From: an uncultured Actinomycetota bacterium
Lineage (GTDB): Bacteria > Actinomycetota > Actinomycetes > JACCUZ01
Reading direction: 5' to 3'
NCBI GenBank assembly: GCA_963757295.1
Contig: CAVWQZ010000006.1
Location: 142,390-206,389 of the forward strand
Length of the DNA stretch: 64,000 bases
Part shown: positions 6,380 through 54,501 of the stretch, one piece after another
Layout: every line of letters begins with the position of its first letter
Numbering within the stretch: the stretch's first letter is position 1
Translations under genes and position numbers: made by a program
The notes under the pieces: model-generated
What the model was told of the DNA's origin: nothing
The model's input: only the letters and a program-made list of their open reading frames with translations
The model's database searches: none

Positions 6380-7311
6380 CAGTGCAGCCGCGCGCCGTCG
6401 AGGTCACGCACGCCGCGCGCCCAGTCCGCGGCCGCCATCGGACGCTTGCCGGCCGGGCGCACCTCGCCGAGCTCGACGGCGCGCCCGTCGCCGGCACCCA
6501 CCAGCACGCGCGCCTTCTCCACCCGCACCTCGCCCGGCGCCAGCGCGGTCTCCCCGGCGGGGCTGACCGGGCCGAGACCGAGCCGCTCCTCGCCGACCGT
6601 GGTCCAGGCCCCGGGGGCGGGGGTGCACGCGCGCACCAGCCGGTCGACGTGCTGGGCCGGGCTGGTCCAGTCGACCCGCGCGTCGCCGGTGCCGAGCTTG
6701 GGCGCGAGCGAGACGCCGTCGGCCGGCTGCGGCACCCCCACCACGTCGCCGCTCTCGATGCCGTCGAGGGTGGCCACCAGCAGCCCCGCGCCCGCTCGCG
6801 CGAGCCGGTCGAGCAGGTCTCCGCTGGTGTCGGAGGCGCGGACCGGCTCGGTCAGCGTGCCGAACACCGGCCCGGTGTCCAGCCCCTCCTCCAGCAGGAA
6901 GGTCGTGGCGCCGGTGAGGTCGTCGCCGTGCAGGATCGCGTGCTGCACGGGGGCGGCGCCGCGCCAGGCGGGCAGCAGCGAGAAGTGCAGGTTGACCCAG
7001 CCGTGCCGCGGGATGCCCAGCGCCGCGGGCGGGACCAGCGCGCCGTAGGCCACCACCGGGATGCTGTCCGGCGCCAGCTCGCGCAGGCGGTCGAGGAACC
7101 CGGGGTCACGTGGGGTCGGCGGCTTGAGCACCTCGAGACCGTCGCGCTCGGCGCGGACCGCCACGGGTGAGGGGGCGAGGCGCCGGCCGCGGCCCGCCGG
7201 TGCGTCCGGCCGGGTCACCACCGCGACGACGTCGTGACGGGAGGCCAGCAGTGCCTCCAGCGACGGCACGGCGACCTCGGGGGTCCCGGCGAAGACGAGC
7301 CGCACGCGACC
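6379..7311 (-). CDS. fmt: Methionyl-tRNA formyltransferase
   Basis: [43 protein letters not shown]...[35 protein letters not shown] start. Confidence 0.85.
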
Positions 7312-7865
7312 CGCCCCGCTACAGCGCTCGCCCGTGCAGGGCGTGCGGGGACACGCGTACGTCGGGCGCTGGCCTGCCCGGACCACTCGGCCTCGCGGAT
7401 CGCCCGCATGGCGAGCTTGCGCTGCTCGCGGTCCAGCCGGTCGATGAACAGGATCCCGTCGAGGTGGTCGGTCTCGTGCTGGACGCAGCGGGCGAGCAGC
7501 TCGCTGCCCTCCAGGGTGACCGGCTCGCCGTGCATGTTCATGCCCGTCGCGACCACCCGGATCGCCCGCTTGGTCGGGAACGCGAGACCGGGGAAGGACA
7601 GGCAGCCCTCCTCGCCCTCCTCCTCCTCGGTGGACAGGTCGAGCGAGGGGTTGATGAGGTGCCCGAGCGTGTCGTCGACGTAGTAGGTGAAGACCCGCAG
7701 GCTGACCCCGATCTGCGGCGCGGCCAGACCGACGCCCGGCGCATCCATCATCGTCTCGGCGAGGTCGCGCACGAGCGTGCGCAGCTCCTTGTCGAAGTCG
7801 CGCACCGGGTCGGCGGGCGTGCGCAGCACCGGGTCGCCGAAGAGCCGGATGGGCTGGACGGGCAC
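7215..7865 (-). CDS. def: Peptide deformylase (3' end uncertain; ORF as printed runs ~90 nt into fmt, suggesting an indel near 7320-7400)
   Basis: [21 protein letters not shown]...[16 protein letters not shown]...EGCLSFPG...[16 protein letters not shown] (three Def motifs). Confidence 0.7.
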
Positions 7866-7981
7866 AGACGCTCCCTCTGATCCGGGTGACGGGGACGTGA
7901 ACAGTCTACGGACGCCGAAATCGGGGGTTCCCAACCGCGGCTGGTGCGGTCAGATGGGGTCGAACCCACCGGAGGATCGCC

Positions 7982-9252
7982 ATGACTGCTCGACGACCGC
8001 CGTCCCGCTGGCTGCGGGCGCGGCCCCGCCGTGCTGGCCACGCTCGCCGGCCTGACCGCCGCCGCTCCGCTGGCGGTGGCATCGCCGCCCGGCAACACGG
8101 TGCGCTTCGCGACGTACAACGCGTCGCTCAACCGCAACGTCGCGGGCCAGTTGATCCAGGACCTCGCCACGCCGAGCAACGCCCAGGCGGCGAACGTCGC
8201 GGAGGTCATCCAGCGGGAGCGCCCGGACGTGCTGCTGATCAACGAGTTCGACTTCGACGCCGGCGGGCGTGGCCCTGGCGCGCTTCCAGGACAACTACCT
8301 GTCGGTGCCGCACAACGGCGCGGCCGCCGATCGACTACCCCTACGCGTTCACCGCGCCGTCCAACACCGGGATCGCCGTCCGGCTTCGACCTGAACAACA
8401 ACGGCGGAGTGGTCACGACGCCGGGGCCCTGGCTACGGCGACGACGCCCTCGGCTTCGGCGCTTCCCGGGCCAGTTCGGGATGGCGGTCTACTCGATGTA
8501 CCCGATCGACCGACGCGGCGATCCGCACGTTCCAGAACTTCCAGTGGAAGGACATGCCGGGCACTACCCGAGATGCCGCCCCGGTGGACTGGTACTCCGC
8601 GGAGGAGCAGGCCATGCTGCCCGTGTCGTCCAAGAGCCACTGGGACCTGCCGATCCAGATCGGCAAGCGCACCGTGCACTTCCTGGTCAGCCACCCGACG
8701 CCGCCGGTGTTCGACGGCGCCGAGGACCGCAACGGCCGGCGCAACTTCGACGAGATCCGGCTGTGGGCCGACTACATCACGCCGGGCGCGGGCGGCTACA
8801 TCTACGACGACGCGGGCGGCGCGCGGCGGCCTGGCGCCGGGCGAGTCGTTCGTGATCGCCGGCGACCAGAACTCCGACCCGCTCGACGGCGACAGCATCC
8901 CGGGCTCGATCCAGCAGCTGATCGACAACCCGCGGCGTCAACACGTCGCACACGCCGGAGAGCGCCGGTGCCGCCGAGGCGTCGGCGCTGCAGGGCGGGG
9001 CCAACCTGACGCACCGCTCCGACCCGAGGTTCGACACGGCGGACTTCGCCGACTCCGCACCCGGGCAACCTGCGCGCGGACTACGTGCTGCCGAGCAGCG
9101 ACCTGCGGATCTGGGACTCGGGGGTGTTCTGGCCGGTCCAGGCCGACCCGCTGTTCCGGCTGACCGGCCGTCTTCCCGGCTTCCCGACCTCGGACCACCG
9201 CTCGGTCTGGGTCGACGTCAAGGTGCCGGGCGCCAGCTCGCCGGCGCGCTGA
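7982..9252 (+). CDS. Secreted endonuclease/exonuclease/phosphatase (EEP) family protein; at least 5 frame shifts
   Basis: Signal-peptide-like [105 protein letters not shown], ...[17 protein letters not shown]. Pieces are spread over three frames. Confidence 0.55.
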
Positions 9253-9260
9253 GCCGCGCC

Positions 9261-9917
9261 ATGGCGGACATCGTCGATCCCCGCATCGAGGAGTACGCCG
9301 TGGCGCACTCCACCCCGGAGCCGGCGCTCTTCGCCGACCTCGCCGCGGAGACCCGGACGTCGACCAGCGCGCCGAACATGATGGTGGGCACGCTGGAGGG
9401 CCGGTTCCTGTCGTTCCTCGTGACGATGCTGCGCCCGCAGCTGGTGCTCGAGATCGGCACGTTCACCGGCTACTCCGCGCTGTCCATGGCGGAGGCACTC
9501 CCACCCGGGGGCCGGATCGTGACGTGCGACATCAGCGAGGACCACGTGGCCATCGCCCGTCGCCACATCGACGCCTCGCCGCACCGCGACCAGATCGACA
9601 TCAGGGTCGGTCCGGCGATCGACACGCTGAAGAGCCTGGACGGACCGTTCGACCTGGCGTTCATCGACGCCGACAAGACCGGCTACCTCGACTACTACGA
9701 GGCGATCGTGCCGAAGCTGGCTCCGGGCGGTGTGATCGCCGTGGACAACGTGCTGTGGAGCGGGCGGGTGCTCGACGACGCCCCGGCCGACGAGGTCGAC
9801 GAGTCGACGCGCGCACTGCGCGAGTTCAACGACCACGTCGTGGCCGACGAGCGGGTCGAGTGCGTGATGCTGCCGCTGCGCGACGGCGTCACGCTGGTTC
9901 GGCTCCGGGCGGGCTGA
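9261..9917 (+). CDS. Class I SAM-dependent O-methyltransferase (family 3, caffeoyl-CoA OMT-like)
   Basis: LVLEIGTFTGYSALSMAEALPPGGRIVTCDISEDHVAIARRHI...FDLAFIDADKTGYLDYYE...GGVIAVDNVLWSGRV. Intact 218 aa. Confidence 0.8.
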   Translation: MADIVDPRIEEYAVAHSTPEPALFADLAAETRTSTSAPNMMVGTLEGRFLSFLVTMLRPQLVLEIGTFTGYSALSMAEALPPGGRIVTCDISEDHVAIARRHIDASPHRDQIDIRVGPAIDTLKSLDGPFDLAFIDADKTGYLDYYEAIVPKLAPGGVIAVDNVLWSGRVLDDAPADEVDESTRALREFNDHVVADERVECVMLPLRDGVTLVRLRAG

Positions 9918-10542
9918 GCGGGCGCGCGGCGGCAGGAGGCCGACCTGGACGAGCTGCTCGCGCAGCCGGCCGGGGCTCTCGTAGTGGATGGTGACGAGAC
10001 CGGCCGCCCGGGCCGCGGCGATGTTGGCCGGCGAGTCGTCGATGAAGACCGTGTGGGCAGCATCGAGCCGGTGACGTTCGAGCAGGATCGCGAAGATCCG
10101 CGGGTCGGGCTTGGTCACCTGCTCCTCCCCGGAGACGACGATGCCGTCGAACAGGTCGAGGAAGGCGTACTCGCGGCGCGCCACCTGGAACGTCTCGGCC
10201 GACCAGTTGCTCAGCGCCAGCAGCGGCACCCCGGCGGCGTGCAGCTCCTCGAGGATGGCGACGGTGCCGGTGATCGGCCCACCGAGGGTGTCGACGAACC
10301 GCTTCGGGTAGGCCTCGATCAGCTCGCGGCGGTGCGGGTGCAGCGCCGCGTGCGCGGCGACCGCGTCGGCCCAGCTCCGGCCGGCATCCTGCGCGTGGTT
10401 CCACGCCGCGAAGCCGATCTCGTCGAGGAACGCATCGACCTCGTCCTCGGGCATCAGCCGGCGGTAGAGGTAGCGCGGGTCCCAGTCGATCAGGACCCCG
10501 CCGAGGTCGAACACCACCGTGTCGATGCCGTCGATGCGCATG
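9890..10542 (-). CDS. HAD-superfamily hydrolase (subfamily IA); 3' end uncertain
   Basis: MRIDGIDTVVFDLGGVLIDWDPRYL...LLALSNWSAETF...KPDPRIFAILLERHRLDAAHTVFIDDSPANIAAARAAGL. Confidence 0.65.
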
Positions 10543-36713: not shown

Positions 36714-38051
36714 TCAGCGGTCGTCCTCGCGGAAGTTCTTCACGTTGATGTTCAGCAGCGGGCCGGGCATGTTCTCCAGGTAGCAGTCGTCAATCTTGAT
36801 GTCGGCCGTGCCGGTGAGGTCGAACTGGTTGGCGGCGTAGATCGTGCCGATCAGCTGTGCAGCCACCGTTGGACTTCGTGACGTTGCCGTTCGGTGCCGG
36901 CCCGAGCGCGAAGATGGCAGCTTGCAGGATGGTGTTGGCGTTCAGCCGGATGTTGCCCTTCTTGACGATCACGACGACGCCGCCCTTGGGGGCGCAGTTC
37001 GCATCGTCCGCGTCCACGAAGACCGAGGACGGCCGGCCGTAGAGGGTCTGGGAGATGTCGTTGAGGTCGACCATCCCGCCGACAGCAGCGCCCTGGAGGT
37101 CGTAGAAGAGGACCGGGTTCTTCAGCGGCGAGGTGCCGTTGGAGATGGGCGCGGGGATCGCGGTCGTGTTGGTGAAGTAGTTGTTCTGTTCGATGGCGAT
37201 GCCCTTGAGCAGGTCGAGCTGGGCGTCGGAAAGGCCCGAGGTGTTGTAGTCGTACATCTGGCCCATCTGCGTGGCGCTGGAGATCAGCGACGTGGACGGG
37301 TAGACCGGTGGGCCGGCGAACATGTTGAAGCACGGGGCCGGGACCGGGTTCGCCCCGTTGATGTCCTGGTCATAGGGGTACGCCGTGTTGCACCGCGTTG
37401 AGCCGTCTGTGGATGTTGTTGCTGGTGCCGGGGCAGTTGTTGCTCTCGGTGATGTTCGACGACGAGTGAGCTGCGGCCGGGATGCCGTAGACCATGTCGA
37501 TGTTTCCGCCGAAGTTGATCTTGTCCCGGTCGTTGATGCAACCGGTCGAGAACAGCGACAGGTAGTGGATACCGCTGCTGCCGCCGGCGGTCAGGTTGTT
37601 GGAGAACAGCCCGATCGGGTACTCGAAGGGCTTGACCTCGACGTCGACCTCGATGGTCCGCGAACCCGGGCCGGGCTCGGAGATGCCCACCGAGTGGATG
37701 CGGTAGACGCCGGGACGCCGCTTCGGCTGGTCCATCGGCTGCAGGGTCTCGAACCACACGTTGTAGCGCTCGTTCGGTGCCAGCGAGACGACCTTCGACG
37801 GCATGGGCGTCACCGTCCTCCGCCGACTCGCCCCACGGGTTCGCGGCGCCGCAGTTGGGAGAGCACTTGATCTTCAGGACGCCTTCCGTGCGGATGTAGG
37901 CGACGGCCTGGGCGATCCCGCCCTCGGAGACGGACAGCGCCGAGGCCGACTGCCGGTCGCTGGTGCTGCTGGTCAGGTTGCTCGACGTCACGCCGATCGC
38001 GGCCACCGCGAACGCGGTGAGCAGCGCCGCCATCAGCAGCACCGTGATCAT
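36714..38051 (-). CDS. PilX_N-type pilus assembly / minor-pilin-associated protein, tandem copy A; at least 3 frame shifts
   Basis: MITVLLMAALLTAFAVAAIGVTSSNLTSSTSDRQSASALSVSEGGIAQAVAYI (hydrophobic N-terminus plus S..E..A..AAEAG-like PilX_N pattern). Downstream parts PSKVVSLAPNERYNVWFETLQP..., CFNMFAGPPVYPSTSLISSATQMGQMYDYNTSGLSDAQLDLLKGIAIEQNNYF... lie in other frames. Confidence 0.55.
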
Positions 38052-38177
38052 GCGCGGCTCCAGCCTCGCGGTCTTCGCGGGGGCGGCGAAGGAGACTGGC
38101 GAGTGATCTCATGCTGCGTTCCTCACATCGAGTGGACGAGAGACCCACCGGGCAGACCCTAGGGCAGAGAGAGCCGA

Positions 38178-39511
38178 TCAGCGGTCGTCCTCGCGGAAGT
38201 TCTTCACGTTGATGTTCAGCAGCGGGCCGGGCATGTTCTCCAGGTAGCAGTCGTCGATCTTGATGTCGGCCGTGCCGGTGAGGTCGAACTGGTTGGCGGC
38301 GTAGATCGTGCCGATCAGCTGCGAACCACCGTTGGACTTCGTGACGTTGCCGTTCGGTGCCGGCCCGAGCGCGAAGATGGCAGCTTGCAGGATCGTGTTG
38401 GCGTTCAGCCGCACGTTGCCCTTCTTGACGATCACGACGACGCCGCCCTTCGGGCGCGCAGTTCGCATCGTCCGCGTCCACGAAGACCGAGGACGGCCGG
38501 CCGTAGAGGGTCTGGGAGATGTCGTTGAGGTCGACCATCCCACCGACAGAAGCGCCCTGGAGGTCGTAGAAGAGGACCGGGTTCTTCAGCGGCGAGGTGC
38601 CGTTGGAGATGGGCGCGGGGATCGCGGTCGTGTTGGTGAAGTAGTTGTTCTGCTCGATGGCGATGCCCTTGAGCAGGTCGAGTTGGGCGTCTGAGAGGCC
38701 CGAGGTGTTGTAGTCGTACATCTGGCCCATCTGCGTGGCGCTGGAGATCAGGACGTCGACGGGTAGACCGGTGGGCCGGCGAACATGTTGAAGCACGGCG
38801 CCGGGACCGGGTTCGCCCCGTTGATGTCCTGGTCATAGGGGTACGTCGTGTTGCACCGCTGCGTCGCACTGTGGATGTTGCTGCTGGTCCCGGGGCAGTT
38901 GTTGCTCTCGGTGATGTTCGCCGACGAGTGCGCGCGGCCGGGATGCCGTAGACCATGTCGATGTTGCCACCGAAGTCGATCTTGTCCCGGTCGTTGATGC
39001 AGCCGGTCGAGAACACCGACAGGTAGTGGATGCCGCTGCTGCCGCCGGCGGTCAGGTTGTTGGAGAACAGCCCGATCGGGTACTCGAAGGGCTTGACCTC
39101 GACGTCGACCTCGATGGTCCGCGAACCCGGACCGGGCTCGGAGATGCCCACCGAGTGGATGCGGTAGACGCCGGGGCGCCGCTTCGGCTGGTCCATCGGC
39201 TGCAGGGTCTCGAACCACACGTTGTAGCGCTCGTTCGGGGCCAGTGAGACGACCTTCGACGGCTGGGCGTCACCGTCCTCTGCCGACTCGCCCCACGGGT
39301 TCGCAGCGCCGCAGTTGGGAGAGCACTTGATCTTCAGGACGCCTTCCGTGCGGATGTAGGCGATGGCCTGGGCGATCCCGCCCTCAGAGACAGACAGCGC
39401 CGAGGCCGACTGCCGGTCGCTCGTGCTGCTGGTCAGGTTGCTCGAGGTCACGCCGATCGCGGCCACCGCGAAAGCGGTGAGCAGCGCGGCCATCAGCAGC
39501 ACCGTGATCAT
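38178..39511 (-). CDS. PilX_N-type protein, tandem copy B (~95% identical to copy A); at least 2 frame shifts
   Basis: Same N-terminus, ...KPFEYPIGLFSNNLTAGGSSGIHYLSVFSTGCINDRDKIDFGGNIDMVYGIPAA..., C-terminus CAPKGGVVVIVKKGNVRLNANTILQAAIFALGP...DIKIDDCYLENMPGPLLNINVKNFREDDR*. Confidence 0.55.
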
Positions 39512-43461: not shown

Positions 43462-44500
43462 GTGCCCGTCCTTTCAGGACCGAACCGATGAGCCGCGCCG
43501 CCGGTCCCTCGCGGCACCCTTGTGGGGTGCCGGCCGAGGCAGCTGGGCTGACCACCCGTGGTGGCTCCCTGGCTTTGCGACCCCGTCTCGCGACGGGTGT
43601 GCCGTGTCTGGCCGGTGCAGCTCGTTGACATCAGAGTGTTCGGCCCCCCGCGGGGCCCGCTTGAGCGTCTGTCGGACCGACTTGGCGGCGCCACCCGGGC
43701 GGGCTAAAGCCAGAACGGCGGCCCAGCGGCCAGATGGCCGCCGGACCGCCGCAGGTGCAGACGTCAGATCAGCAGGCGCCCGTCGGTCGGGCGACCGATC
43801 GTGATGTCCAGGTGGTAGTCCACCGCGGCCGGCAGCTTGAGGTGGTTCGCGTTCAGGCAGTAGCCGGTGGTGGTCTGGGTGGCGATCGTCAGGGTGACGT
43901 CGGAGGTGCCGGCGTCGTTACCGGACGACTTGAACAGCGCCGGAGTGGCACCGGCGTAGGTGCCGTTGTCGTCGAAGTACTCCTCCATCTTGGTCGCTGC
44001 GTTGCGCAGGTCGGAGATGGCGGCCTTCTTCCAGGCCTTCTCACGCTGGTTGAGGAACGTGGGGATGGCGATGGCGGCGAGAATGCCGATGATGATGATG
44101 ACCACGAGGAGCTCGATCAGCGTGAATCCGCTGTCGCCTTCCTCGCGGGCCTTGCGGATGCGAGCGAGCATGTGCCCGTCCTTTCAGGACCGAACCGATG
44201 AGCCGCGCCGCCGGTCCCTCGCGGCACCCTTGTGGGGTGCCGGCCGAGGCAGCTGGGCTGACCACACCGTGGTGGCTCCCTGGCTTTGCGACCCCGTCTC
44301 GCGACGGGTGTGCCGTGTCTGGCCGGTGCAGCTCGTTGACATCAGAGTGTTCGGCCCCCCGCGGGGCCCGCTTGAGCGTCTGCCGGACCAAATCTGGCGG
44401 CGCCACCCGAGCGGGCTAAGCCGAACGGCGGCCCAGCGGCCAGATGGCCGCCGGACCGCCGCAGGTGCAGACGTCGCCGGTTCGGAGGGCGCGCTACTCG
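43090..44500. repeat. Tandem direct duplication, unit ~710 bp x2 (pilin CDS plus ~300-bp 5' leader), leaders >95% identical
   Basis: 43462-43763 and 44172-44493 align almost base for base. Both contain hairpins GGCACCC-TTGTG-GGGTGCC and CCCGTC-TCGC-GACGGG. Confidence 0.85.
43764..44171 (-). CDS. pilA1: Type IV major pilin, tandem copy 1 (intact, 135 aa)
   Basis: Same N-terminus with G/FTLIELLVV prepilin cleavage/methylation motif. ...TLTIATQTTTGYCLNANHLKLPAAVDYHLDITIGRPTDGRLLI*. Confidence 0.8.
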   Translation of the reverse strand: MLARIRKAREEGDSGFTLIELLVVIIIIGILAAIAIPTFLNQREKAWKKAAISDLRNAATKMEEYFDDNGTYAGATPALFKSSGNDAGTSDVTLTIATQTTTGYCLNANHLKLPAAVDYHLDITIGRPTDGRLLI

Positions 44501-45717
44501 ACCAGGTCGAAGATCTTGAAGATGGGCATGTAGAGCGCGATGATCATCGACCCGACGATGCCACCGAGGAAGGCGATCATCAGCGGCTCGAGCAGCGCCG
44601 TCAGGCTCTCGGTGGTCGCCTCGACCTCGGCGTCGTAGAACTCCGCGATCTTGCCGAGCATCGTGTCGAGCGCGCCGGTGTCCTCACCGACGGAGAGCAT
44701 CTGGACCACCATCGGCGGGAACACCGAGTGGTTGGCCAGGGGCCCGGCGAGCGTCTCGCCTCGCCGTACGCTCTCCTGCACGTCCCGCGTGGCGTGCGCG
44801 AGCACGACGTTGCCGGTGGTGTCGGCGACGATGTCCAGCGCCTGCAGGATCGGGACGCCGGCCTTGAGCATGGTGCCCAGGTTGCGGCAGAACCGGGTCA
44901 GCGCGACCTTCTGGAACAGGCCACCGAAGACGGGGATCTTCAGCTTCAGCGGGTCGAGGAAGTTGCGCACCCCGTCCTTGTGCTTGACCCGCTTCCACAC
45001 GAACAGGAAGACGATGAAGCCGACGAGGCCCAGCGGCGCCAGGATCTTCATCTTGTCGCTGAGGAACACCAGCACCCGCGTCGGGGCGGGCAGGGTGGCG
45101 CCGAGCTCCTCGAACATCCCGGCGAAGACCGGCACGATGAAGAGCAGCATGCCGGTGACGGCGAGCACGGCCATGATCAGCACGACGACCGGGTAGGTCA
45201 TGGCGGACTTGATCTTGCTGCGCAGCTTGACCTCGGACTCGTAGTTCGCCGCGACCTGCAGCAGCACCGTGTCGAGGAAGCCGCCGACCTCGCCGGCCCG
45301 GGTGAGGTTGACCATCAGGGGCGGGAAGACGTTGGGGTGCTTGGCCATCGCGTTGGACAGCGCGAGACCGGTCTCCACGTCCTTGCCGACCTCGCCGAGG
45401 ACCCGGCGAAGCTCCTTGTTCTCCGTCTGCTCGGCCAGGATCGTCAGCGAGCGCAGCATCGAGAGCCCGGCGTTGATCATGGTCGCGAACTGCCGCGACA
45501 TGACCGCGAGGTCCTTGAGCTTCACCTTCTTGCCGAAGCCCGGGATGCTGATCTCCTTCTTCATCCCGGCCTTGCTCTCGTTGATGCTCACGGGCGCGTA
45601 GCCCATGCTCTTGAGCTTGGTGGCAACCGCAGCCTGGGACTCCGCCTCCAGCTTGCCGGAGACGATCTTGCCCGAGCGGTCCCGGACCGAGTACTCGTAT
45701 GTCAGCGTCGCAGCCAT
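44494..45717 (-). CDS. pilC: Type IV pilus inner-membrane platform protein PilC (two T2SS-F domains)
   Basis: MAATLTYEYSVRDRSGKIVSGKLEAESQAAVATKLKSMGYAPVSI..., two repeats of the GspF-type domain. Intact 407 aa. SD GAGG upstream. Confidence 0.9.
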   Translation of the reverse strand: MAATLTYEYSVRDRSGKIVSGKLEAESQAAVATKLKSMGYAPVSINESKAGMKKEISIPGFGKKVKLKDLAVMSRQFATMINAGLSMLRSLTILAEQTENKELRRVLGEVGKDVETGLALSNAMAKHPNVFPPLMVNLTRAGEVGGFLDTVLLQVAANYESEVKLRSKIKSAMTYPVVVLIMAVLAVTGMLLFIVPVFAGMFEELGATLPAPTRVLVFLSDKMKILAPLGLVGFIVFLFVWKRVKHKDGVRNFLDPLKLKIPVFGGLFQKVALTRFCRNLGTMLKAGVPILQALDIVADTTGNVVLAHATRDVQESVRRGETLAGPLANHSVFPPMVVQMLSVGEDTGALDTMLGKIAEFYDAEVEATTESLTALLEPLMIAFLGGIVGSMIIALYMPIFKIFDLVE

Positions 45718-45728
45718 TGCCTTGCCTC

Positions 45729-46993
45729 TCAGCCTCGGCCAGACAGCCGGTTGAAGTCCTCGACGTGGTGGCACTTCTCGAGACCGGTCTCGTAGGTGAT
45801 CTTGCCCTTCTTGACAAGGTCTGCGAGGTGCTGGTCCATGGTGTGCATTCCGTGCTTCGCCCCGGCCTGCATGGCCGAGTAGATCTGGTGGGTCTTGCCT
45901 TCCCGGATGAGGTTGCGGATGGCCGGCGTGGCCACCAGCACCTCGGTTGCGACCACGCGGCCCTGACCGTCAGCGGTCCGGGCGAGCGTCTGGCAGACGA
46001 CGCCCTGGAGGGCGCCGGCGAGCTGGACCCGCACCTGCTGCTGCTGGTGCGGCGGGAAGACGTCGATGACGCGGTCGATCGTCTGCGCCGCGTCCTGACG
46101 TGTGCAGCGTGGCGAAGACGAGGTGGCCGGTCTCGGCCGCGGTCAGGGCGACCGAGATCGTCTCGAGGTCACGCATCTCGCCGACCAGGATGATGTCGGG
46201 GTCCTGGCGCAGCACGTGCTTCAGCGCGTTCTGGAAGGACCAGGTGTCCTCCCCCACCTCGCGCTGGTTGACGATGCAGGACTGGTGACGGTGGAGGAAC
46301 TCGATCGGGTCCTCGACGGTCATGATGTGGTCTTTGCGCGTCCGGTTGGCGAGGTCGACGATCGAGGCCAGCGTCGTGGACTTGCCGGAGCCGGTAGGAC
46401 CGGTGACGAGGACGAAGCCACGCGGCAGGCTCGCGAAGTTCGCCACCGACGGCGGTACGCCGAGGTCCTCGAGCTTGCGGATCTCGAACGGGATGATGCG
46501 GAAGGCAGCGCCGACCGCGTCCCGCTGGCGGTACATGTTGACGCGGAACCGTGCGCGGCCAGGGACGCTGTAGGCGAAGTCGAGCTCGAGGTTCTCCTCG
46601 AACTTCTCCCGCTGCTTCTGGGTCAGCGCCGCGTACATCACGCGCTGGATGACCGGCGGCGTCAGGATCGGCTGGTCCTCCAGGGCCATCAGCTCGCCGT
46701 TGAGGCGCAGTGACGGCCGGGCACCGGAGGTGAGGTGCAGGTCGGACGCGCCGCGGCTGAGGACGGTCTCCAGCAGGTCGTTCAGGGAGATGTCCTCGTC
46801 CTCGAGCGGCGGCTTCGGTCGACCCGCGCTGGTAGGCGGACTCGACGGCCTCGGGCTCGGCCACGAGGACCGTCTGCTCGGGGACCGGTACGACGTCGGC
46901 GTGCCACTCGGTCGAGGCCACCGGCAGCGGTGCCAGCGGCTCGGCAGCGACCTGGGTCGGGAAGGTCGGGAGGAAGGCCTCAGCGGGCGGCAT
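45729..46993 (-). CDS. pilT: Twitching-motility retraction ATPase PilT with an apparent ~65-aa Pro/Ala/Glu-rich N-terminal extension; frame shifts near 46040 and near 46800; no start codon at the canonical PilT N-terminus
   Basis: ...[38 protein letters not shown]..., Walker [17 protein letters not shown], ...LVFATLHTS, then C-part (ORF 45729..46034) [20 protein letters not shown]...[23 protein letters not shown]. Candidate ATG at 46993 overlaps the upstream small-ORF stop. Confidence 0.75.
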
Positions 46994-47350
46994 GGCGGAC
47001 GGCACGGGCGGCGGCACGGCTCGGACGGCCGGCGGCCTCGGCGACCGGCTCGGCGAGGTACTCCGGCGCAGGCGCAGGCGCGGGAGCCTGGGCCGGCGGG
47101 GCGTCGAGGTACTCGGGCTGCGGCGGGGCGGCGGCCTCGAGCGACGGCGGCGGCGGTCGGGCGCCGGCTCGTTCACGTAGGAGTAGTTCCACCCTCCCCC
47201 GGCGACCGTCTGCTCCTCTTCGGGCGCGAGGCCAGGACCGGGCACGAACGTGCTCGGCTCTTCCGGCTGCGCCGGCTGGAATCCGGACGTCTCCACCTGC
47301 TGACCCCTTTCGACGTACCGTGCGGTCGCACGGCACCCGAGCAGACCTGG
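46980..47350 (-). other. Coding potential for a small (~105-125 aa) acidic Pro/Ala/Glu-rich low-complexity protein between pilB and pilT (frame-shifted; could alternatively be part of a longer PilT N-extension)
   Basis: [46 protein letters not shown]..., then other-frame [45 protein letters not shown]...*. SD AAAGGGG before GTG 47296. Confidence 0.3.
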
Positions 47351-47450
47351 CTGTCGAGCCAGTTCTCTCCTGCGTGGCATCGGTCGAGCAGTCGGCCTGC
47401 TTGAGCGTCGGGCCCGACCTTGCCAAGCCTTTAGACGACGACCCGCAGGA

Positions 47451-49098
47451 TTTCGTCCAGCGAGGTGATCCCGTCGAGCACCTTGGCGAGGCCGTCGTGA
47501 GCGCAGGGTGACCATGCCCTCTTCGCGGGCCTGCTCGGCGATGGCGGCCGCCGAGGCGTGCTCCACGGCCATCCGCTCGATGGTCTCGCTCACCGGCATC
47601 ACCTCGTGCAGCGCGAGCCGGCCCTTGTAGCCGGTCTTCGAGCACGCGGAGCAGCCGATCGGCCGGAAGAGCGTTGGGGACCGGCTCACCGTCCTGCAGC
47701 GGGAAGCGGGACTGGACCAGCAGCTCGCGGGAGGGGGTGAACTCCTCCTTGCACTTGGCGCAGAGCCGGCGGGCGAGGCGCTGGGCCAGCACGCAGTCCA
47801 GGGCGGACCCGACCAGGAACGGCTCGATCCCCATCTCGATGAGCCGGGTGATCGAGGACGGCGCGTCGTTGGTGTGCAGGGTGGAGAGGACCAGGTGGCC
47901 CGTCAGCGCCGCTTCCACGGCGATCTGAGCCGTCTCGTGGTCGCGGATCTCACCGATCAGCACGATGTCGGGGTCCGAACGCAGGATCGAGCGCAGGGCC
48001 GAGGCGAACGTCAGTCCCGCCTTGATGTTCGTCTGGACCTGGTTGATGCCCGGCCAGGCGATACTCCACCGGGTCCTCGACCGTGATGACGTTGACCTCG
48101 GGCCGGCTGACGATGTTCAGGGTCGCGTACAACGTCGTGGACTTGCCGGAACCGGTCGGACCGGTGACCAGGATCATCCCGTAGGGCTTGATGAAGCTCT
48201 GGGAGTAGACCTCGTAGTTGTGCTCGGAGAAGCCGAGGTCGGCGAGGTCGAGCCGGGCGGTCGAGTTGTCCAGGATTCGCATGACGACCTTCTCGCCCCA
48301 CACGGTCGGCAGCGTCGCGACCCGCAGGTCGATCTTGCGGCCGTGCGCATTGACCGAGAGGCGGCCGTCCTGAGGGATCCGGCGCTCCGCGATGTTGATG
48401 TCGGCCATGATCTTCAGTCGGCTGATGACGCCCTGCTGGATCGCCTTCGGTGAGCGCATGATCTCGTGCAGTACGCCGTCGATGCGGAACCGCACGCGCA
48501 GGTCGGTCTCGGTCGGCTCCAGGTGGATGTCCGAGGCTCGGTCCTGGATCGCCTGCGTGATCAACAGGTTGACGTACTTGACGATCGGCGCGTCCTCGAC
48601 GATCTCCTTGACCTTGGAGAGGTCGTCCTCCTCCTCCTGCGCGTCCAGCGCCTGGGTGAGGTCGTCGAGGTCGGAGTCGGCGCGGTAGTAGCGGTCGATG
48701 GCCGCGGCGACGTCCGCCCGGGTCGCGACGACCGGCTTGACGTCCATGCCGGTCAGCGACCGGATGTCGTCGACGGCGAACACGTTGGCCGGGTCGGCCA
48801 TCGCGACGAGCAGCTTGCCGTCCTCGAAGCCGATCGGGATGGCCGCGTGGCGGCGGCACACCGGCCCGGGCACGCGCCCGATGGCTGAGCCGTCGACCGG
48901 GAAGTCGCTCAGGTCGACGAAGCGCAGGCCGATCTGGGTGGCCAGCGCGGCCACCAGCTGGGACTCGGTGAGCACGCCCTGCTCGATCAGCACGCGCCCG
49001 AGGGCCCGGCCGACCCGTTCTTGTTCCTCGTAGGCGATGGCGAGCTGGTCAGAGCTGACCAGTCCACCCTCCAGGAGGATGTCGCCGAGCTGTTTCAC
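47451..49098 (-). CDS. pilB: Type IV pilus assembly/extension ATPase PilB (GspE family with N-terminal GSPII_E_N domain); at least 3 frame shifts (near 48055, 47680, 47500)
   Basis: GTG start after [41 protein letters not shown]..., Walker [64 protein letters not shown], zinc motif CAKCKEEF...[12 protein letters not shown], end [27 protein letters not shown]. Confidence 0.85.
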
Positions 49099-50977
49099 GC
49101 ACCCTCTCCTGCCGTCGAAGCCACGTTGGCGCCTCTGTTCCATCGGGTGGATGCGGCCGATCCTGAAGACGCATCGGTGCTGCTCTGATCGAGGCGGCGC
49201 AGCGCGTCCTCGACCGCTGCGCGCGCGCCGTCCGGCCCGGTCGTTGCCAGGACAGCCCGCAGGCGCAGCAGGATCGCCCTGGCCTCCGCCGCTCGGCCGG
49301 CCGTCTCCAGCACGCCCGCCTGACCGAGCAGCAGCATGGGCAGGCGCTGGCTGGAGGCGTCGGCCACAGCAGCTGCCAGGGCCACGCCCGCGGCCGGGCG
49401 CCCGGTCACGACCAGGGCCTTCGCACGATCCATCTGCAGCCCGGGATTGTCGGTGGCGGCCCGCTCGGTGCACTCCAGGGCGGTGCGCAGGTCCGCCTGG
49501 TCGGTGCCGCGCAGCATCGACCGGCAGACCGAGGCCGCCGGCAGCCAGGAGAGGTGCCCGGAGGCGGGGACGACACTCGTCACCGGCTGCGCCCACAGCG
49601 GGACCTCGGCGGCGGAGGCTCGCAGGCCGGATGCGCGCACCGCGGCCGGCACCGACACCAGCAGGAGCGCGACGGCGACGACAGCGACAGCACGTGGCCA
49701 CACGCCGGCCGGCGCATCGGGGCGTTGCCGGGCGGGCACGACCAGCCCTGCCAGGATCGCGAGGAACGCGAGCAACGACGGGTAGATCCAGTCGAAGTCC
49801 ACCCCGGAGTGCAGGATCAGGCCGAGCATGGCCAGCGGGACGCCGATGGCCACGACTTCGTCGTCGCGGCGGCGGGAACGGGACATGAGAGCCCACAGCC
49901 CGGCGAGCAGTGGGACACCCGTCGCGAGCGCGAGGGCCGCCACCAGGGGTCCACCGCCGTCGGAGAAGGCCTGCAGATAGCCGTTGTGCACATGGGTCGC
50001 GGGCGCCTACCCCGACGGGCAGGCGCACCGGAGGCGCCGGCGAACGAGTCGAACCCCGCACCGGTGAGCGGGTGCTCGGTGCCCAGCTCAGTGGCAACCT
50101 TCCAGAACTCGAGCCGCGCTCGGCCGTTGCCCTCCACAGACTGCGCCGGCGCCGCGGGCCCTGCAAGGTGGCGAACGGGCCGCCGGACTCCTCCATCAGC
50201 AGCGGGCTGGCGAGGACAGGTGCGCCAGACCCAGAGCGACGGCGACCAGGGCGAGGGCGGCTACCCGCCCTCTGCTGTCGATGAAGGACAGCACGATCAC
50301 GACGAGCCAGACGACCAGGAAGGTGCCCAGCCCGGCGCGACTGCCGGCGAACAGCAGCCCCGCGAGGCACCAGGGCGCGGTCACCCAGCCGACGATGCGC
50401 AGAGCGCCGTGAGCGCGGACAGCCAGCACTCCGGCGAGGACCCCTGCCCCGACCATGAACGCAGAGAACTGGTTGTGCCAGTAGAAGGTTCCCGAGCATC
50501 AGGCGGTAGACGCTGCCGCCGCCCCACCACGGCACGTAGGACTGGTAGAACTGCTCGAGCCCGACCACGGCGAGGACACCGAGAAGGGCGTGCCGGCGCG
50601 AGCGCGTGGTGGCCCAGGACCCGGACCACGACAGCGAGCAGGCCGGCGTAGGCCAGGGTCGCGACCTCGTCCAGGCCGTCCCAGTGGGTCGGGGCCGTCA
50701 GGCAGACGACGATCGCCGCCAGCCCGGGCGTCACGGCGAGCAGAAGCTGCCAGGCGGGAAGCACCCGCCACGGCCGCGTCGCGAACAGCGCCGGCGCCAG
50801 GGCGACGAGGGCCAGCCCGAGGACCCACGGGTCGCGCCCACCCGAGCCGTGCGTGAGCGGAACGGCCCACGCGAGAAGGGCGAGGACGACGGTCGCGGTG
50901 GCGACGTGCCCCGCCGTCGTGGTCCGGGCGCGGTCGCCGTCGAGCCGCACGGGCGGCCGCGACTGAAGCAGCGTCAT
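49095..50977 (-). CDS. Polytopic membrane protein with Wzy_C / O-antigen-ligase-type domain and C-terminal TPR-like region (PglL/TfpO-like O-oligosaccharyltransferase candidate); at least 4 frame shifts
   Basis: Multiple TM segments (WVLGLALVALAPALFATRPW..., FLVVWLVVIVLSFIDSRG...). Signature H-N-G-Y-L-Q-A-F-S-D-G-G-G-P-L-V. TPR-like tail LRTALECTERAATDNPGLQMDRAKALVVTGRPAAGVALAAAVADAS. Stop at 49095 abuts the pilB GTG at 49098. Confidence 0.55.
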
Positions 50978-51198
50978 CTGCGAGTCATCGGCAACGCGAC
51001 ATTCACCCTGAAGGAGTAACGCTGCGCGCGGCGAGCAGCATGGCGACCTGCCCGATCGAGCGGGTCAGCGCCGAGTCGGCGGGCAGCACGGTCTCGCCCA
51101 GATCGCCGAACACCAGGTGCACGACGACGGTCGGGTCCGACCGGCGGCGCCGGCCGGGCAAGGCCTCGAGACCCCAGGGGCTGGCCACCGCCACCCGA

Positions 51199-51774
51199 TC
51201 AGGCGCGGACGGCTTCGGTCTCGACCTCGTCGAGAACCGCGTAGAGCAACGCCAGCAGGACGTTCTTGACCGACTCCTTGTCGGTGGCGTCGCAGGACAT
51301 GATCGCCACGTCGGCGGGGATCTCGAGGGTCTCGCGGACCCGCTCGGTCAGCGCGTGGTCGTCCGGCGCGGCCCGGTTGAGCGCCACGACGTACGGCACC
51401 CGGGCCATCCGCCGGAACGCCTCGAGGATCCCGCTCGCCTCGGCGATGGAGTCCTCACGCTCGGCGTCCACGAGCAGCAGGTAGCCGATCATGCCCTCGC
51501 CGAGGATCTCCCACATGAAGTCGAAGCGCTCCTGGCCCGGCGTGCCGAACAGGTAGAGCACGAGGTCGCGGTCGATCGTGATGCGACCGAAGTCCATCGC
51601 CACGGTCGTCTCGGCCTTGCGCGACCGGGTGCTGTCGGTGATCCCGCGCTCCGTGGAGAGCACCGTGATCTCGCTGATGGTGCGGATCAACGTGGTCTTG
51701 CCGGCCGAGAACGGCCCGGTGACGACCACCTTGACTGCCTGACCACCGCGACGGCGGTTGCGTGCTGACGCCAT
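51199..51774 (-). CDS. MglA/CvnD-like Ras-superfamily small GTPase (Roadblock-associated ATP/GTP-binding protein)
   Basis: VKVVVTGPFSAGKTTLIRTISEI...TTVAMDFGRITIDRDLVLYLFGTPGQERFDFMWEILGEGMIGYLLLVDAE...VVALNR. Intact 191 aa. Confidence 0.8.
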   Translation of the reverse strand: MASARNRRRGGQAVKVVVTGPFSAGKTTLIRTISEITVLSTERGITDSTRSRKAETTVAMDFGRITIDRDLVLYLFGTPGQERFDFMWEILGEGMIGYLLLVDAEREDSIAEASGILEAFRRMARVPYVVALNRAAPDDHALTERVRETLEIPADVAIMSCDATDKESVKNVLLALLYAVLDEVETEAVRA

Positions 51775-51777
51775 GGC

Positions 51778-52993
51778 CTAGAGCCCCCTGACCCCGGCGA
51801 TCAGCCGCAGCATCAGGCTGCGGTTGACCGACGGGTCTCGTTCGATGAGCGACGGCTGGGGTTCGAGCGCGGTGGCGCCGACGACGTCGCCGGAGCCTGC
51901 CCCACCCGACCCCCCTGGGGTTGCGTGCGGGACGGACCGGTTTGCGGCTGCGGGGCTGCCGTCGTCGAACTCGGCCTGACGGCGGGGCAGGAACGGCTCG
52001 GACCGCGGCGGTACGACGTCGCCGGGCACGTGCGCGCCGCCGAGCATCATCGGACCGTCGCCGGCCGATGCCTTCACCAGGTCGGGCTCGTCGGCGGACT
52101 CCGCCGGCGCGGCGGGCGCGTCCGCGGGGGCGTCGGCAGGCGGCGTCGTCCTGGTCGCCGGACCGGGCGGCGGGCGGCGACGCGGGCGCAGCAGCGGGGG
52201 ACGCGGCAGGCTTCTTGACGGGGGCGGCCGGGGAGACCTCGACCGGGCCGAGCAGCTCCTGACGTCGTACGACGACACTCACGTGGTCGTCGCCGTCCTC
52301 GCGGACCTCCAGCAGCGACCGGCTGACCAGGCCGGCGAGCGTCGACACCACGGCGTACCGGCCGCAGCCGGTGAGGTCGACGAGGTCGTTGACGCTGCGT
52401 CGACCGTCGATGAGGGCCAACAGCGCCCACTCGTCGCGGCTGATGTCGGGGTCGTCAGGGAGCACGACCGGCATGCTCAGGATCGCCGTCGGCGACGGGA
52501 CGACCTGGCTCACGGTCTCCCAGCTGGCCCGGCGCGCGTCGGCGTCGGCAACGACGGTCTCGGTCTGCACGCTCACACCGACGTCGTCGGGGTTGACCTC
52601 GTCCATCACGAAGGCGAACTCGCCGGTCTGCCACTGCAGCAGGTCGAAGACCGCGTCGACGGACTGGTCGCTCACGGCCTGGCGGAGCAGCTCGGCCTCG
52701 ACCGCGTTCGCCTCGAGCAGTGCCTTCACGACGCCGACGTCCTTGTCGTCGCGGGCGCGCTGCACGGCCTCGCCGAGCGACCCGTCGTCGACGGCCCCGC
52801 TGCCGATCAGGCGGCGGGCCAACGGCTGGCGGGAGGTGTCCGCGGACGCACCAGTGATCTGCCCGGCGGTGAAGAACACCACGCCGTCGCACCCGTCGCT
52901 GGACAGGTGCAGGCCACCGGTCTTCTTGGTGAAGCTCAGCAGCTGGAAGACGTCCGGCAGGCTGAAAGCGTCAAGGGACCCCTCGAGCTTCAT
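51778..52993 (-). CDS. PATAN/DUF4388-domain protein with Pro/Ala-rich linker and short conserved C-terminal segment; frame-shifted in the middle
   Basis: MKLEGSLDAFSLPDVFQLLSFTKKTGGLHLSSDGCDGVVFFTAGQITGASAD (DUF4388 pattern LxGxLxxFxLxDLLQLL...KTGxL), ...RDEWALLALIDGRRSVNDLVDLTGCGRYAVVSTLAGLVSRSLLEV, C-terminus ...DPSVNRSLMLRLIAGVRGL*. Confidence 0.6.
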
Positions 52994-53013
52994 GTCAGGT
53001 CCAGCTCGTGGTC

Positions 53014-53589
53014 TCAGCCGGGGTCGCGTTCTCCGGCTGGCCCCAGCCGTTCTTGGTCACGAACTGCAGCGGAGGCACGTCCTCGCTGTGGTCGTCGGTC
53101 TGCGTCGGTCTGGTCATCGGCCTGGTCGTCGGTCTCGGCGCCGGAGGCGTGCGCACCTCTGGCCGCGGGCACCAGGCTGGGCGCCGTCTCGACCCGGAGC
53201 GCGTCGGCCACGGAGGCTGCCGCGCGGCGGACCTCGAAGAGCATCAGACCGACCTTGGCGCCGCGCGAGGCGACGGCCACCAGCACGGCCTCGTCGTCGG
53301 CGGAGACCAGGAAGACGGTGCCGTTCTCGCCCTCGACGTAGATCTGCGAGAGCTCACCCCGGCCCAGACCCTCAGCGGCCCGCTCGCCCAGGGAGAGCAG
53401 GGCGGCGCTCATGGCGGCCACCCGGTCCTCGTCCATGCCGGCAGGCAGGGCCGCGGCCATCGCCAGACCGTCGAAGGACACCACTGCGGCGGCCTCGACC
53501 TCGGGCACCTGGCCGACCAGCTCGGCCAGAATCTGGTCCAGCTTCGCCGACCGGCTGACGCCGCTGGCGGCGTGGTTCGCTTCGCTCAT
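53014..53589 (-). CDS. Roadblock/LC7-domain protein (MglB/CvnB-like); C-terminus frame uncertain
   Basis: AKLDQILAELVGQVPEVEAAAVVSFDGLAMAAALPAGMDEDRVAAMSAALLSLGERAAEGLGRGELSQIYVEGENGTVFLVSADDEAVLVAVASRGAKVGLMLFEV. Confidence 0.75.
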   Translation of the reverse strand: MSEANHAASGVSRSAKLDQILAELVGQVPEVEAAAVVSFDGLAMAAALPAGMDEDRVAAMSAALLSLGERAAEGLGRGELSQIYVEGENGTVFLVSADDEAVLVAVASRGAKVGLMLFEVRRAAASVADALRVETAPSLVPAARGAHASGAETDDQADDQTDADRRPQRGRASAAVRDQERLGPAGERDPG

Positions 53590-53674: not shown

Positions 53675-54501
53675 TCAGGGTGTGCGCAGCGCGCGTTCTC
53701 CCGCGGCCCGCAGCACGGGCACCAGTGCCGGTACGTCGACCGGCCGCCCGGTCATCAGCGCGACCTGCAGAACGGCCTGGTGAACCAGCAGGTCAAGGCC
53801 ACCGAGCACGTCAGCCCCGCGCTGCCGCCAGGCCGTCGCCAGCGGGGTGGGCCACGGGTCGTAGACGACGTCGAAGAGCATCCCGGCCAGCCGCGGCGGC
53901 AGGGTCTCGGCCAGCGCGTCCGTGCTGCCGGCCGGCGTCGTCGACACCACCAGGTCGGCGCCGGCGAGCGCATCCAGGCTGGTGGACGACCACTCCTCGA
54001 CGTGCGGCCGCACCCCGAGGCGCGCCGCCGCCTGCTCCAGGCCGGCTGCCCGGCCGCGGTCGCGCACCAGGACGGTCGGCGTGGACTCCCCCAGCTGCTG
54101 CAGGGCGGCCAGGGCCGCGGCGGCGGTCGCGCCCGCACCGAGGACGCAGGCCCAGCCCACCCCGTCGACCCCGCGCTCGCGCAGGGCGGCGACCATGCCG
54201 GGCACGTCGGTGTTCTCGCCCTGCCGGCCGTCGGGGCCGAGCAGGACCGTGTTGGCGCCGCCGACCGCACGGACCAGCTCGCTGGACCGGTCGAGCAGCG
54301 TCAGCACGGCCGCCTTCAGCGGCATCGTCAACGAGAGTCCGGCCCACGAGCCGTCCAGCCCGTCGAGGAAGCCCGCCAACCCGGCCGCGTCCACGTCGTA
54401 CGCGTCATAGGTCCACTCCGCGAGGCCGAGCTCGTCGTAGGCGGCCTGGTGGAGGACGGGGGAAAGCGAGTGGCGGACCGGCGAGCCGAGCACGGCTGCG
54501 C
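53675..54501 (-). CDS. aroE: Shikimate dehydrogenase
   Basis: GTG start overlapping the mltG stop (GTGA). [21 protein letters not shown]...SLTMPLK...VLGAGATAAAALAAL. Confidence 0.8.

Follow-up and report, generated by a model that had tools for sequence, protein, structure and literature searches.

We have analysed three co-directional genes that open a type IVa pilus cluster in a 64-kb stretch of DNA (~72% G+C) from an uncultured soil bacterium of the Actinomycetota (contig CAVWQZ010000006.1), hereafter the window. In transcription order on the minus strand (53589→51199), the genes encode a Roadblock/LC7 protein, a protein with a PATAN (DUF4388) domain and a small GTPase, and they are referred to below as the triad. 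The embedding of the triad in a pilus locus is phylum-wide and not an accident of one genome, and the triad is probably a control switch for the pilus. Coding frames were assigned with a frame plot of third-position GC content (GC3), in which the minus strand carries coding throughout 44-59 kb. A clean 2.16-Mb contig, L002, served as the reference (95.5% identity to the window in a 12-kb alignment with 80 gaps); its triad proteins are intact at 202, 412 and 191 amino acids (aa). The features of the triad are as follows.

52995..53589, minus strand: Roadblock/LC7 gene of the MglB type (PF03259; 202 aa in the intact orthologue)
51778..52993, minus strand: PATAN-protein gene (PF14332; 412 aa in the intact orthologue; in two frames here)
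52499..52993, minus strand: PATAN domain with a four-helix insertion, aa 1-165 (Pfam match at aa 4-158; AlphaFold2 model)
52289..52441, minus strand: winged-helix-like domain, aa ~185-235 (MarR_2 matches; three helices in the model)
51841..52288, minus strand: Pro/Ala-rich linker, predicted to be disordered (model confidence below 50; length statistics)
51781..51840, minus strand: C-terminal amphipathic helix, ...RDPSVNRSLMLRLIAGVRGL, up to the stop codon (motif of the orthologues; helix in the model)
51199..51774, minus strand: MglA-family small GTPase, 191 aa, intact (Pfam; motif alignment)

The Roadblock gene begins with an ATG at 53589, with a GAGGTGG Shine-Dalgarno sequence before the start. 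A single nucleotide (nt) separates it from the PATAN-protein gene (TGAcATG) and 3 nt separate the latter from the GTPase gene (TAGgccATG); because the gaps are this small, a packing that we count in support of the interpretation given below, the three genes constitute one operon. The original prediction, drawn from the letters of the window, had placed co-directional genes for a Roadblock/LC7 protein, a DUF4388/PATAN protein with a Pro/Ala-rich linker and a Ras-like GTPase at 51199-53589, and all of these were found there, on the minus strand. It was right that the spacing is tight but wrong in giving gaps of 3-20 nt, and right that the triad adjoins a Wzy_C gene and pilB but wrong in having it follow them, since it precedes both in the direction of transcription and follows only in plus-strand coordinates. 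An exact-protein look-up returned 100% identical copies of the GTPase on 18 public contigs, and all homologues bear only generic names.

The window carries alaS, ruvX, mltG and aroE, then the triad, an open reading frame (ORF) of 63 aa, the Wzy_C gene, pilB, pilT, pilC and pilin genes, followed further on by pilM, pilN and pilO and then by aroC and aroB. Pfam matches to T2SSE/MshEN, T2SSF, PilM_2, PilN, PilO and N_methyl in one cluster identify a type IVa pilus locus, of which the triad is the first transcription unit. Together, the pilus cluster and the triad (~21 kb; window 29726-54493) lie within the shikimate operon, between aroE and aroC-aroB, and the placement after aroE recurs across Actinomycetota.

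To assess conservation of this arrangement, one genome from each species was scanned with the GTPase; this returned at least 551 relatives, of which the best 80, all from metagenome-assembled genomes (MAGs) and 54-91% identical, were kept. L002 proteins were mapped onto these 80 loci, and the counts below refer to loci with enough flank (at least 3 kb upstream for Roadblock and PATAN). Among the 58 such loci of Actinomycetota, Roadblock and PATAN genes accompany the GTPase in all 58, pilB is in the locus in 57 and pilB lies within 3 kb of the GTPase in 54. These loci span Frankiales, Mycobacteriales, Acidothermaceae, Nanopelagicales, Nitriliruptorales, Coriobacteriia and, as deep lineages, ‘Candidatus Solincola’ and Geothermocultor. 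The gap between the GTPase gene and pilB is only 11-54 nt in six of them (27 nt in L039, an Acidothermus MAG), and in Nitriliruptorales pilB starts directly at the stop of the GTPase gene. Coriobacteriia and Geothermocultor have the order aroE-PilB-triad-PilB2-PilT-PilC, with the triad between two pilB paralogues, and the ‘Candidatus Solincola’ lineage has triad-aroE-PilB; since pilB is still near when the order relative to aroE has changed, the triad tracks pilB. A link to the pilus locus conserved in relatives, as had been predicted, is thus observed, and no relative was found with the triad at the aroE position and no pilus locus: the sole actinobacterial locus without pilB in 10 kb, L040, has the space filled by a glycosylation island (flippase, methyltransferase, glycosyltransferases), and an island of the same kind stands ahead of pilB in L033. 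In Chloroflexota the order is PATAN-GTPase-Roadblock, with Roadblock and PATAN mostly below the tblastn threshold (low-identity PATAN and Roadblock were found in 4 and 1 of the 10 loci with upstream flank, respectively); Pfam confirms PATAN in L064, and tblastn places a Roadblock gene just after the GTPase in L053, L061 and L075.

The GTPase matches Pfam ATP_bind_1 (E 1e-19) and Ras (E 8e-7), and NCBIfam yields only the generic small_GTP, below cut-off. Its motifs are G1 GPFSAGKT, G2 ETTVAMDF, G3 LFGTPGQE (GTPGQ), G4 LNRAA (NRAA) and G5 DATDK, and those of G2 and G3 are shared by all 80 orthologues in the motif alignment. In the published classification of the family (PMC4316618), Group 1 is told apart by an intrinsic arginine finger next to the G2 Thr together with TVPGQ as its G3; the G2 of Groups 2-5 reads Thr-Thr and their G3 GTPGQ. 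NxFD as G4 and DAR as G5 mark Group 2 (conservon CvnD), and the G4 of Group 5 is reported as [NT]KxD. The Thr-Thr of G2 and the GTPGQ of G3 therefore place the GTPase, as judged from its motifs, within MglA Groups 2-5 and not with MglA proper (Group 1); by its remaining motifs it is not a CvnD either. The arginine finger and TVPGQ of Group 1 are absent and phmmer matches MglA structures only at E 1e-3; the best sequence matches in the PDB, though weak, include MglA. The predicted MglA likeness thus holds for the family and fails for MglA proper. G4 and G5 read NRAA and DAT in place of the CvnD motifs, although some orthologues in Coriobacteriia and Nitriliruptorales do have DAR. In the clade of the window G4 is degenerate (NRAA, NRSS or NRTT), lacks the guanine-specifying Asp and departs from the [NT]KxD of Group 5, which suggests altered nucleotide handling; NKxD or NKQD is kept in orthologues from Nitriliruptorales, many Coriobacteriia and Anaerolineae.

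An exhaustive search with the GTPase gave 2408 clusters at E≤1e-3, of which 150 representatives at 50% identity were used for a neighbour-joining tree with 200 bootstraps. Among these representatives, the CvnD-like set carries GGFGVGKT, NxF(D/P) and DAR, none of which is present in the GTPase of the window. In this phylogeny, of the kind that had been called for, the Actinomycetes clade of the window was recovered in 137/200 replicates and a CvnD-like clade that excludes the query in 79/200; support for all deeper nodes, on which the relation to CvnD and to other Group 5 members depends, is 0-23/200. Soil-metagenome relatives are 86-99% identical among the best 120 of 8000 candidates scored, relatives in Chloroflexota are 54-62% identical and the switch regions are near-invariant, because of which the GTPase appears to be under strong purifying selection. 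More distant relatives (~40-49% identity) are C-terminal domains of fusions, several with degenerate P-loops; these include TIR-HEAT-GTPase (P0276, P0296, P0297, P0312, P0340, P0388), TIR/nSTAND1-GTPase (P0260) and GAF-GTPase (P0335) fusions, which may be defence or signalling proteins unrelated to pili. PADLOC defence models gave only a match of P-loop length for the GTPase of the window (LeoA, aa 10-40) and nothing for the other three proteins.

The Roadblock protein matches Pfam Robl_LC7 (PF03259, E 5e-19) and, weakly, the MglB model of NCBIfam. Its translation contains an Asp-Gly pair (FDGL in ...VVSFDGLAM...) of the kind conserved in MglBs coupled to MglA Groups 2-5 (PMC4316618), and its coupling to an MglA-family GTPase in 58/58 loci likewise conforms to an MglB-type Roadblock/LC7 protein. 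Beyond the domain the protein runs out into an acidic tail, disordered and of low complexity, whose last residues, ...SW(S/T), are kept in Actinomycetes and Nitriliruptorales. Tandem duplicate Roadblock genes occur in the lineage that includes ‘Candidatus Solincola’; this duplication and the two pilB paralogues of Coriobacteriia and Geothermocultor were noted in L054, L056, L057 and L067 (~5500-9990) and in L065, L066, L068, L071 and L086.

The PATAN protein has a nearly complete DUF4388/PatA_N domain (PF14332, E 1e-23, profile positions 1-121 of 122), after which Pfam gives a weak winged helix of the MarR_2 type at residues 189-236 (E 3e-4). An AlphaFold2 model of the intact protein was built on a 41-sequence alignment. 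In this model the PATAN domain, aa 1-165, has a predicted local distance difference test (pLDDT) score of 76-88 and consists of strands at 2-50, four inserted helices at 57-119 and a strand at 125-130, in agreement with the alpha-helical insertion by which PATAN domains are recognised; a three-helix domain follows at 185-230 (pLDDT ~68-80), aa 231-392 are disordered (pLDDT <50) and a terminal helix spans 395-411. Alignment indicates that the winged-helix-like domain is conserved from Actinomycetota to Anaerolineae. Among 25 orthologous winged-helix segments, MarR_2 is matched by 15 and DUF742 weakly by 4 (best E 0.0016), and all winged-helix matches are below Pfam curated cut-offs; the window protein itself has no DUF742 match at E<0.1 and no Response_reg match, so that a PatA-type response regulator with a receiver domain is not what lies here. 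A Foldseek search of the model against the PDB found nothing significant, the best match being CRP/NtcA at E 0.4.

Linker length is very variable between lineages (total protein median 402 aa, maximum 1273 aa, in 62 ORFs read through to the stop, some cut by frameshifts included), and linker expansion has enlarged the protein to 1081-1273 aa in the ‘Candidatus Solincola’ lineage. The last 20 residues, ...RDPxVN(K/R)SLLLRLIAGVRGL, nevertheless terminate the protein in every actinobacterial class sampled and are recognisable in Anaerolineae; orthologues that end in this motif come from Actinomycetes, Nitriliruptorales, Coriobacteriia, deep-branching Actinomycetota and Anaerolineae. Strict conservation of the terminal helix despite the variable linker argues for a specific docking motif, with a membrane-targeting amphipathic helix as the alternative. 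One relative, P0373 (488 aa), is a single polypeptide in which a short PATAN-like N-terminus leads into a winged-helix-like segment, then a Pro-rich linker and then an MglA-like GTPase; it does not have the usual C-terminal helix. This natural fusion hints, as a Rosetta-stone clue, at a direct partnership of PATAN protein and GTPase.

A module of this composition has been catalogued before. In Table S2 of Wuichet & Søgaard-Andersen 2014 the neighbourhood MglB>PATAN>MglA is entered under MglA Group 5 for Aquificae, Chloroflexi, Deinococcus-Thermus, Cyanobacteria and an actinobacterium, Acidothermus cellulolyticus (Acel_1323, 193 aa), with Hydrogenobacter HTH_0572 and Roseiflexus RoseRS_3912 among the other entries (PMC4316618). 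The catalogue and the window share the three components, often in the same order, the Thr-Thr of G2 and GTPGQ of G3, and a GTPase of ~175-200 aa, and the coupled MglB gene of Group 5, often with PATAN and no kinase, is represented here by the Roadblock and PATAN genes directly upstream. Orthologues from Acidothermus and Acidothermaceae MAGs (L039, L034, L038) are 70-73% identical to the GTPase of the window and have the same triad, and the GTPase of the window is presumably an orthologue of Acel_1323 itself. The module is therefore not previously undescribed, as the original prediction had it; its function was left unstudied in that catalogue, which mentions no pilus genes (PilB has 0 occurrences in the supplement) and reports [NT]KxD where the clade of the window has NRAA. 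What is new is the phylum-wide embedding in a pilus locus, the degenerate G4, the Trp-ended Roadblock tail and the architecture of the PATAN partner, with its PATAN domain, winged helix, disordered linker and invariant C-terminal helix. Beyond the catalogue, our literature search found no paper describing a pilus-linked GTPase triad of Actinomycetota.

When and where type IV pili extend is understood in only a few Gram-negative models, and the evidence that ties PATAN and MglA/MglB to pili has consisted of scattered observations on gene neighbourhoods and one interaction study in cyanobacteria. We think it reasonably probable that the triad is a Group 5-type small-GTPase switch built into the actinobacterial type IVa pilus cluster, which decides the engagement of PilB. 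In such a switch, the GTPase would cycle between GTP and GDP with the catalytic Gln of GTPGQ and without an intrinsic arginine finger, and a Roadblock dimer would act on it as MglB does on MglA, as a GTPase-activating protein (GAP) or regulator. The PATAN protein would serve as effector or adaptor, its PATAN domain contacting the MshEN/GspE_N domain of PilB and/or the cytoplasmic N-terminus of PilC, as PixE and PixG do in Synechocystis. The winged helix and the invariant C-terminal helix, on their long flexible linker, may link the PATAN protein either with the GTPase and Roadblock proteins or with the membrane, and the nucleotide state would set the time or place at which PilB joins the pilus machinery. 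All contacts between the proteins, a GAP role and any effect on pili are points that we infer from analogy and synteny.

The closest precedent for a PATAN-PilB contact comes from the PatA-type regulators of cyanobacteria (PixG, PixE, PilG; PATAN-REC), which share the PATAN domain with its helical insertion. Work on Synechocystis (Han et al., bioRxiv 10.1101/2021.06.11.447907) shows that these proteins contact PilB1 through its N-terminal domain and PilC through its cytoplasmic N-terminus, and that they set the direction of pilus activity; of PixE, the PATAN domain by itself suffices to bind PilB1 and to reverse phototaxis. Whether pilus regulation is a conserved role of PATAN is a question that its authors raise. 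The PilB encoded here has an MshEN N-terminal domain (Pfam on L002), which we count as support for such a contact. The triad protein differs in having no receiver domain, so that its input would come from the GTPase and not from phosphotransfer, and in adding a winged helix, a long disordered linker and a conserved C-terminal helix.

Two GTPase systems provide further comparisons. In Myxococcus xanthus and Thermus thermophilus, MglA-MglB is likewise a small Ras-like GTPase paired with a Roadblock/LC7 partner, and MglA is reported to stimulate polar PilB through SgmX, an output onto type IV pili (PMC7519303, PMC7668184). The triad GTPase, in contrast, has TT and not RT, hence no intrinsic arginine finger, and GTPGQ and not TVPGQ, with a similarity of E 1e-3; its genes lie within the pil locus, whereas Myxococcus mglA is not encoded near its interaction partners, and a PATAN protein stands in place of effectors of the SgmX/RomR type. 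The CvnA-D conservons (Group 2; mycobacterial MfpB-MfpC) occur in the same phylum and share the order Roadblock-middle gene-GTPase, the TT and GTPGQ motifs and a middle protein with a winged-helix-like domain, which in mycobacteria (MfpC, DUF742) is a guanine nucleotide exchange factor (GEF) for the GTPase MfpB (PMC11343762). The triad differs from them in having no CvnA kinase, in a middle gene that encodes PATAN plus winged helix and not DUF742, in its G1, G4 and G5, and in being single-copy per locus and tied to pili, not to development or gyrase protection.

We regard a broader version of this proposal as possible, though doubtful: the triad would be the Gram-positive counterpart of the Myxococcus MglA/MglB polarity module, with the PATAN protein physically coupling the state of the GTPase to PilB/PilC, and the actinobacterial conservons may in addition have evolved from the triad. 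The last suggestion derives from the shared Roadblock-X-GTPase order and the winged-helix middle protein; given this order, the triad and the conservons of Streptomyces and Mycobacterium may be related by evolution. Were the counterpart relationship true, it would offer a direct route to test the long-suspected general link of PATAN and MglA/MglB to pilus placement. The presence of pilB in 57/58 loci across several classes of Actinomycetota is strong genomic evidence for a PATAN-MglA/MglB-pilus link. The result is unsurprising in kind, yet it makes the question of PATAN, MglA/MglB and pili directly testable, since the triad is a compact, genetically tractable module with a cultivable carrier, Acidothermus cellulolyticus. 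Soil actinobacteria may thus regulate their pili by a G-protein switch rather than by a chemosensory system.

Several observations weigh against a dedicated pilus switch. None of the 12 Chloroflexota loci with flank has pilB in the locus, within 3 kb of the GTPase or within 10 kb, and therefore the module is not intrinsically tied to pili. The block of alaS, ruvX, mltG and aroE is itself frozen in order, and part of the synteny may therefore be inertia. The nucleotide specificity of the GTPase is uncertain because NRAA lacks the guanine-specifying Asp, the P0373 fusion is a single representative with a weak PATAN match (E 5e-4), and two of the three triad genes, Roadblock and PATAN, are frameshifted as sequenced. 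A winged-helix domain would suit a DNA-binding role equally well.

The main alternative, which we consider unlikely, builds on that domain: the PATAN/winged-helix protein would be a DNA-binding transcription factor for the pil operon or other genes, its activity tuned by the GTPase and the Roadblock protein. A winged helix of the MarR type follows PATAN in orthologues from two phyla, the best fold matches, CRP/NtcA-type regulators, combine a sensor domain with a winged helix, and the position of the triad as first transcription unit of the locus would suit a regulator. The Pfam matches to the winged helix are nonetheless all below the curated cut-offs and the fold matches are non-significant (E at least 0.4), while the authors of the cyanobacterial PATAN work argue against DNA binding and show motor binding. 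DUF742, which is winged-helix-like as well, acts in MfpC as a GEF and not as a DNA binder (PMC11343762).

It is improbable, in our judgement, that the adjacency to pilB is inherited gene order with no functional link and that the triad regulates polarity, division, envelope growth or something else. Such inheritance would account for the whole alaS-ruvX-mltG-aroE neighbourhood being conserved alongside the triad, for Chloroflexota orthologues that adjoin a hydrolase, a hexapeptide transferase and signalling genes and not pili, and for the wide variation of Group 5 neighbourhoods (PMC4316618). It accounts poorly for loci in which the triad stays near pilB with a changed aroE order (Coriobacteriia, aroE-pilB-triad-pilB2; Solincola, triad-aroE-pilB) and for the gaps as small as 11-54 nt to pilB, and PATAN-PilB binding is documented elsewhere, in Synechocystis.

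The frameshifts raise the alternative that the Roadblock and PATAN genes are true pseudogenes of a module decaying in this organism, which we find hardly credible. Relative to L002, the Roadblock gene has a 2-nt deletion near 53103 in its acidic tail, and the ORF as sequenced stops at 53014; tblastn with the L002 protein aligns aa 1-162 at 53589..53104 and aa 168-202 at 53102..52998, in a different frame. The PATAN-protein gene has a 1-nt insertion in a C run near 52140, within the linker (DNA alignment to L002), with the protein-level break at 52101-52127 (tblastn, aa 1-289 at 52993..52127 and aa 306-412 at 52101..51781). In-frame repeat-length differences from L002 amount to 12 nt and 24 nt, the 24 nt being missing from the PATAN gene. 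The shifts at ~53103 and ~52101-52140 would remove the conserved C-terminal motifs of both proteins, as expected of decay. Against decay, the same 15 kb (44-59 kb) contains at least 12 frameshifts relative to L002, among them alaS (two, near 57533 and 58397), mltG, Wzy_C, pilB (three, near 47497, 47672 and 48000) and pilT, such that the essential alaS and at least nine other positions are equally affected; the PATAN insertion, a one-base change in a C run, is a typical long-read error, L002 has all three genes intact, and the GC3 plot switches frame within both genes with GC3 high on either side of each shift. Because alaS, mltG, pilB and pilT are broken in the same window, the triad shifts most likely arose as errors in the assembly of this long-read metagenome contig, and the L002 versions were taken as the true products. 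The window being an unpolished long-read assembly, any reading of it based on ORFs needs frame correction.

That the triad is an ordinary CvnA-D conservon seen incompletely, as the same gene order as cvnB-cvnC-cvnD and the few weak DUF742 matches of orthologous winged-helix segments might allow, is so improbable that this identity was dropped, in keeping with the original prediction: after frame correction the neighbours are aroE upstream and the 63-aa ORF, Wzy_C and pilB downstream, with no CvnA-type histidine kinase, RPY..T.GR motif of DUF742 or second GxPGQ GTPase adjacent or anywhere in the 64 kb, G1, G4 and G5 are unlike those of the CvnD-like set, and the CvnD-like clade excludes the query, in a tree whose deep nodes lack support.

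The genes that flank the triad map as follows.

53675..54493, minus strand: aroE (shikimate dehydrogenase), directly upstream of the triad (tblastn, 98.9% to L002 aroE; Shikimate_dh_N on L002)
51003..51194, minus strand: small ORF, 63 aa (GC3 0.89; conserved in relatives)
49098..50977, minus strand: Wzy_C-domain membrane protein, frameshifted (Wzy_C annotation on L002; tblastn mapping)
47434..49098, minus strand: PilB extension ATPase (MshEN N-terminal domain plus T2SSE), three frameshifts (Pfam on L002; tblastn in four frame segments)
~45732-47291, minus strand: PilT, frameshifted (mapping from L002)
44494-45717, minus strand: PilC (mapping from L002)

The 63-aa ORF starts 4 nt past the GTPase stop, is 48-97% identical in the closest loci (L001-L011) and is called as a gene in JGI metagenomes. 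Six Actinomycetes loci at a greater distance (L018, L022, L031, L032, L043, L048) have a motif, V.L.F.DGS.V.L...DP..RAF, in the corresponding place. The ORF belongs to no Pfam family and a homologue search returned only close relatives; it may be a fourth component of the module.

In some relatives the slot between the triad and pilB, where the Wzy_C gene stands in the window, holds an island of 5-10 kb (L040, 10597-20562; L033, 10887-19952) with a flippase, a methyltransferase, GT1/GT2/GT4 glycosyltransferases and an initiating sugar transferase. Wzy_C is, we presume, the family of the PglL/TfpO pilin oligosaccharyltransferases. Glycosylation islands at this slot suggest pilin O-glycosylation, for which the Wzy_C protein is probably an enzyme. 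Further along the cluster, between the pilin genes and pilM, three ORFs of 121, 147 and 177 aa at 36790-38543 (minus strand) have no Pfam match; their GC3 is coding-like, and they may encode minor pilins or other pilus components.

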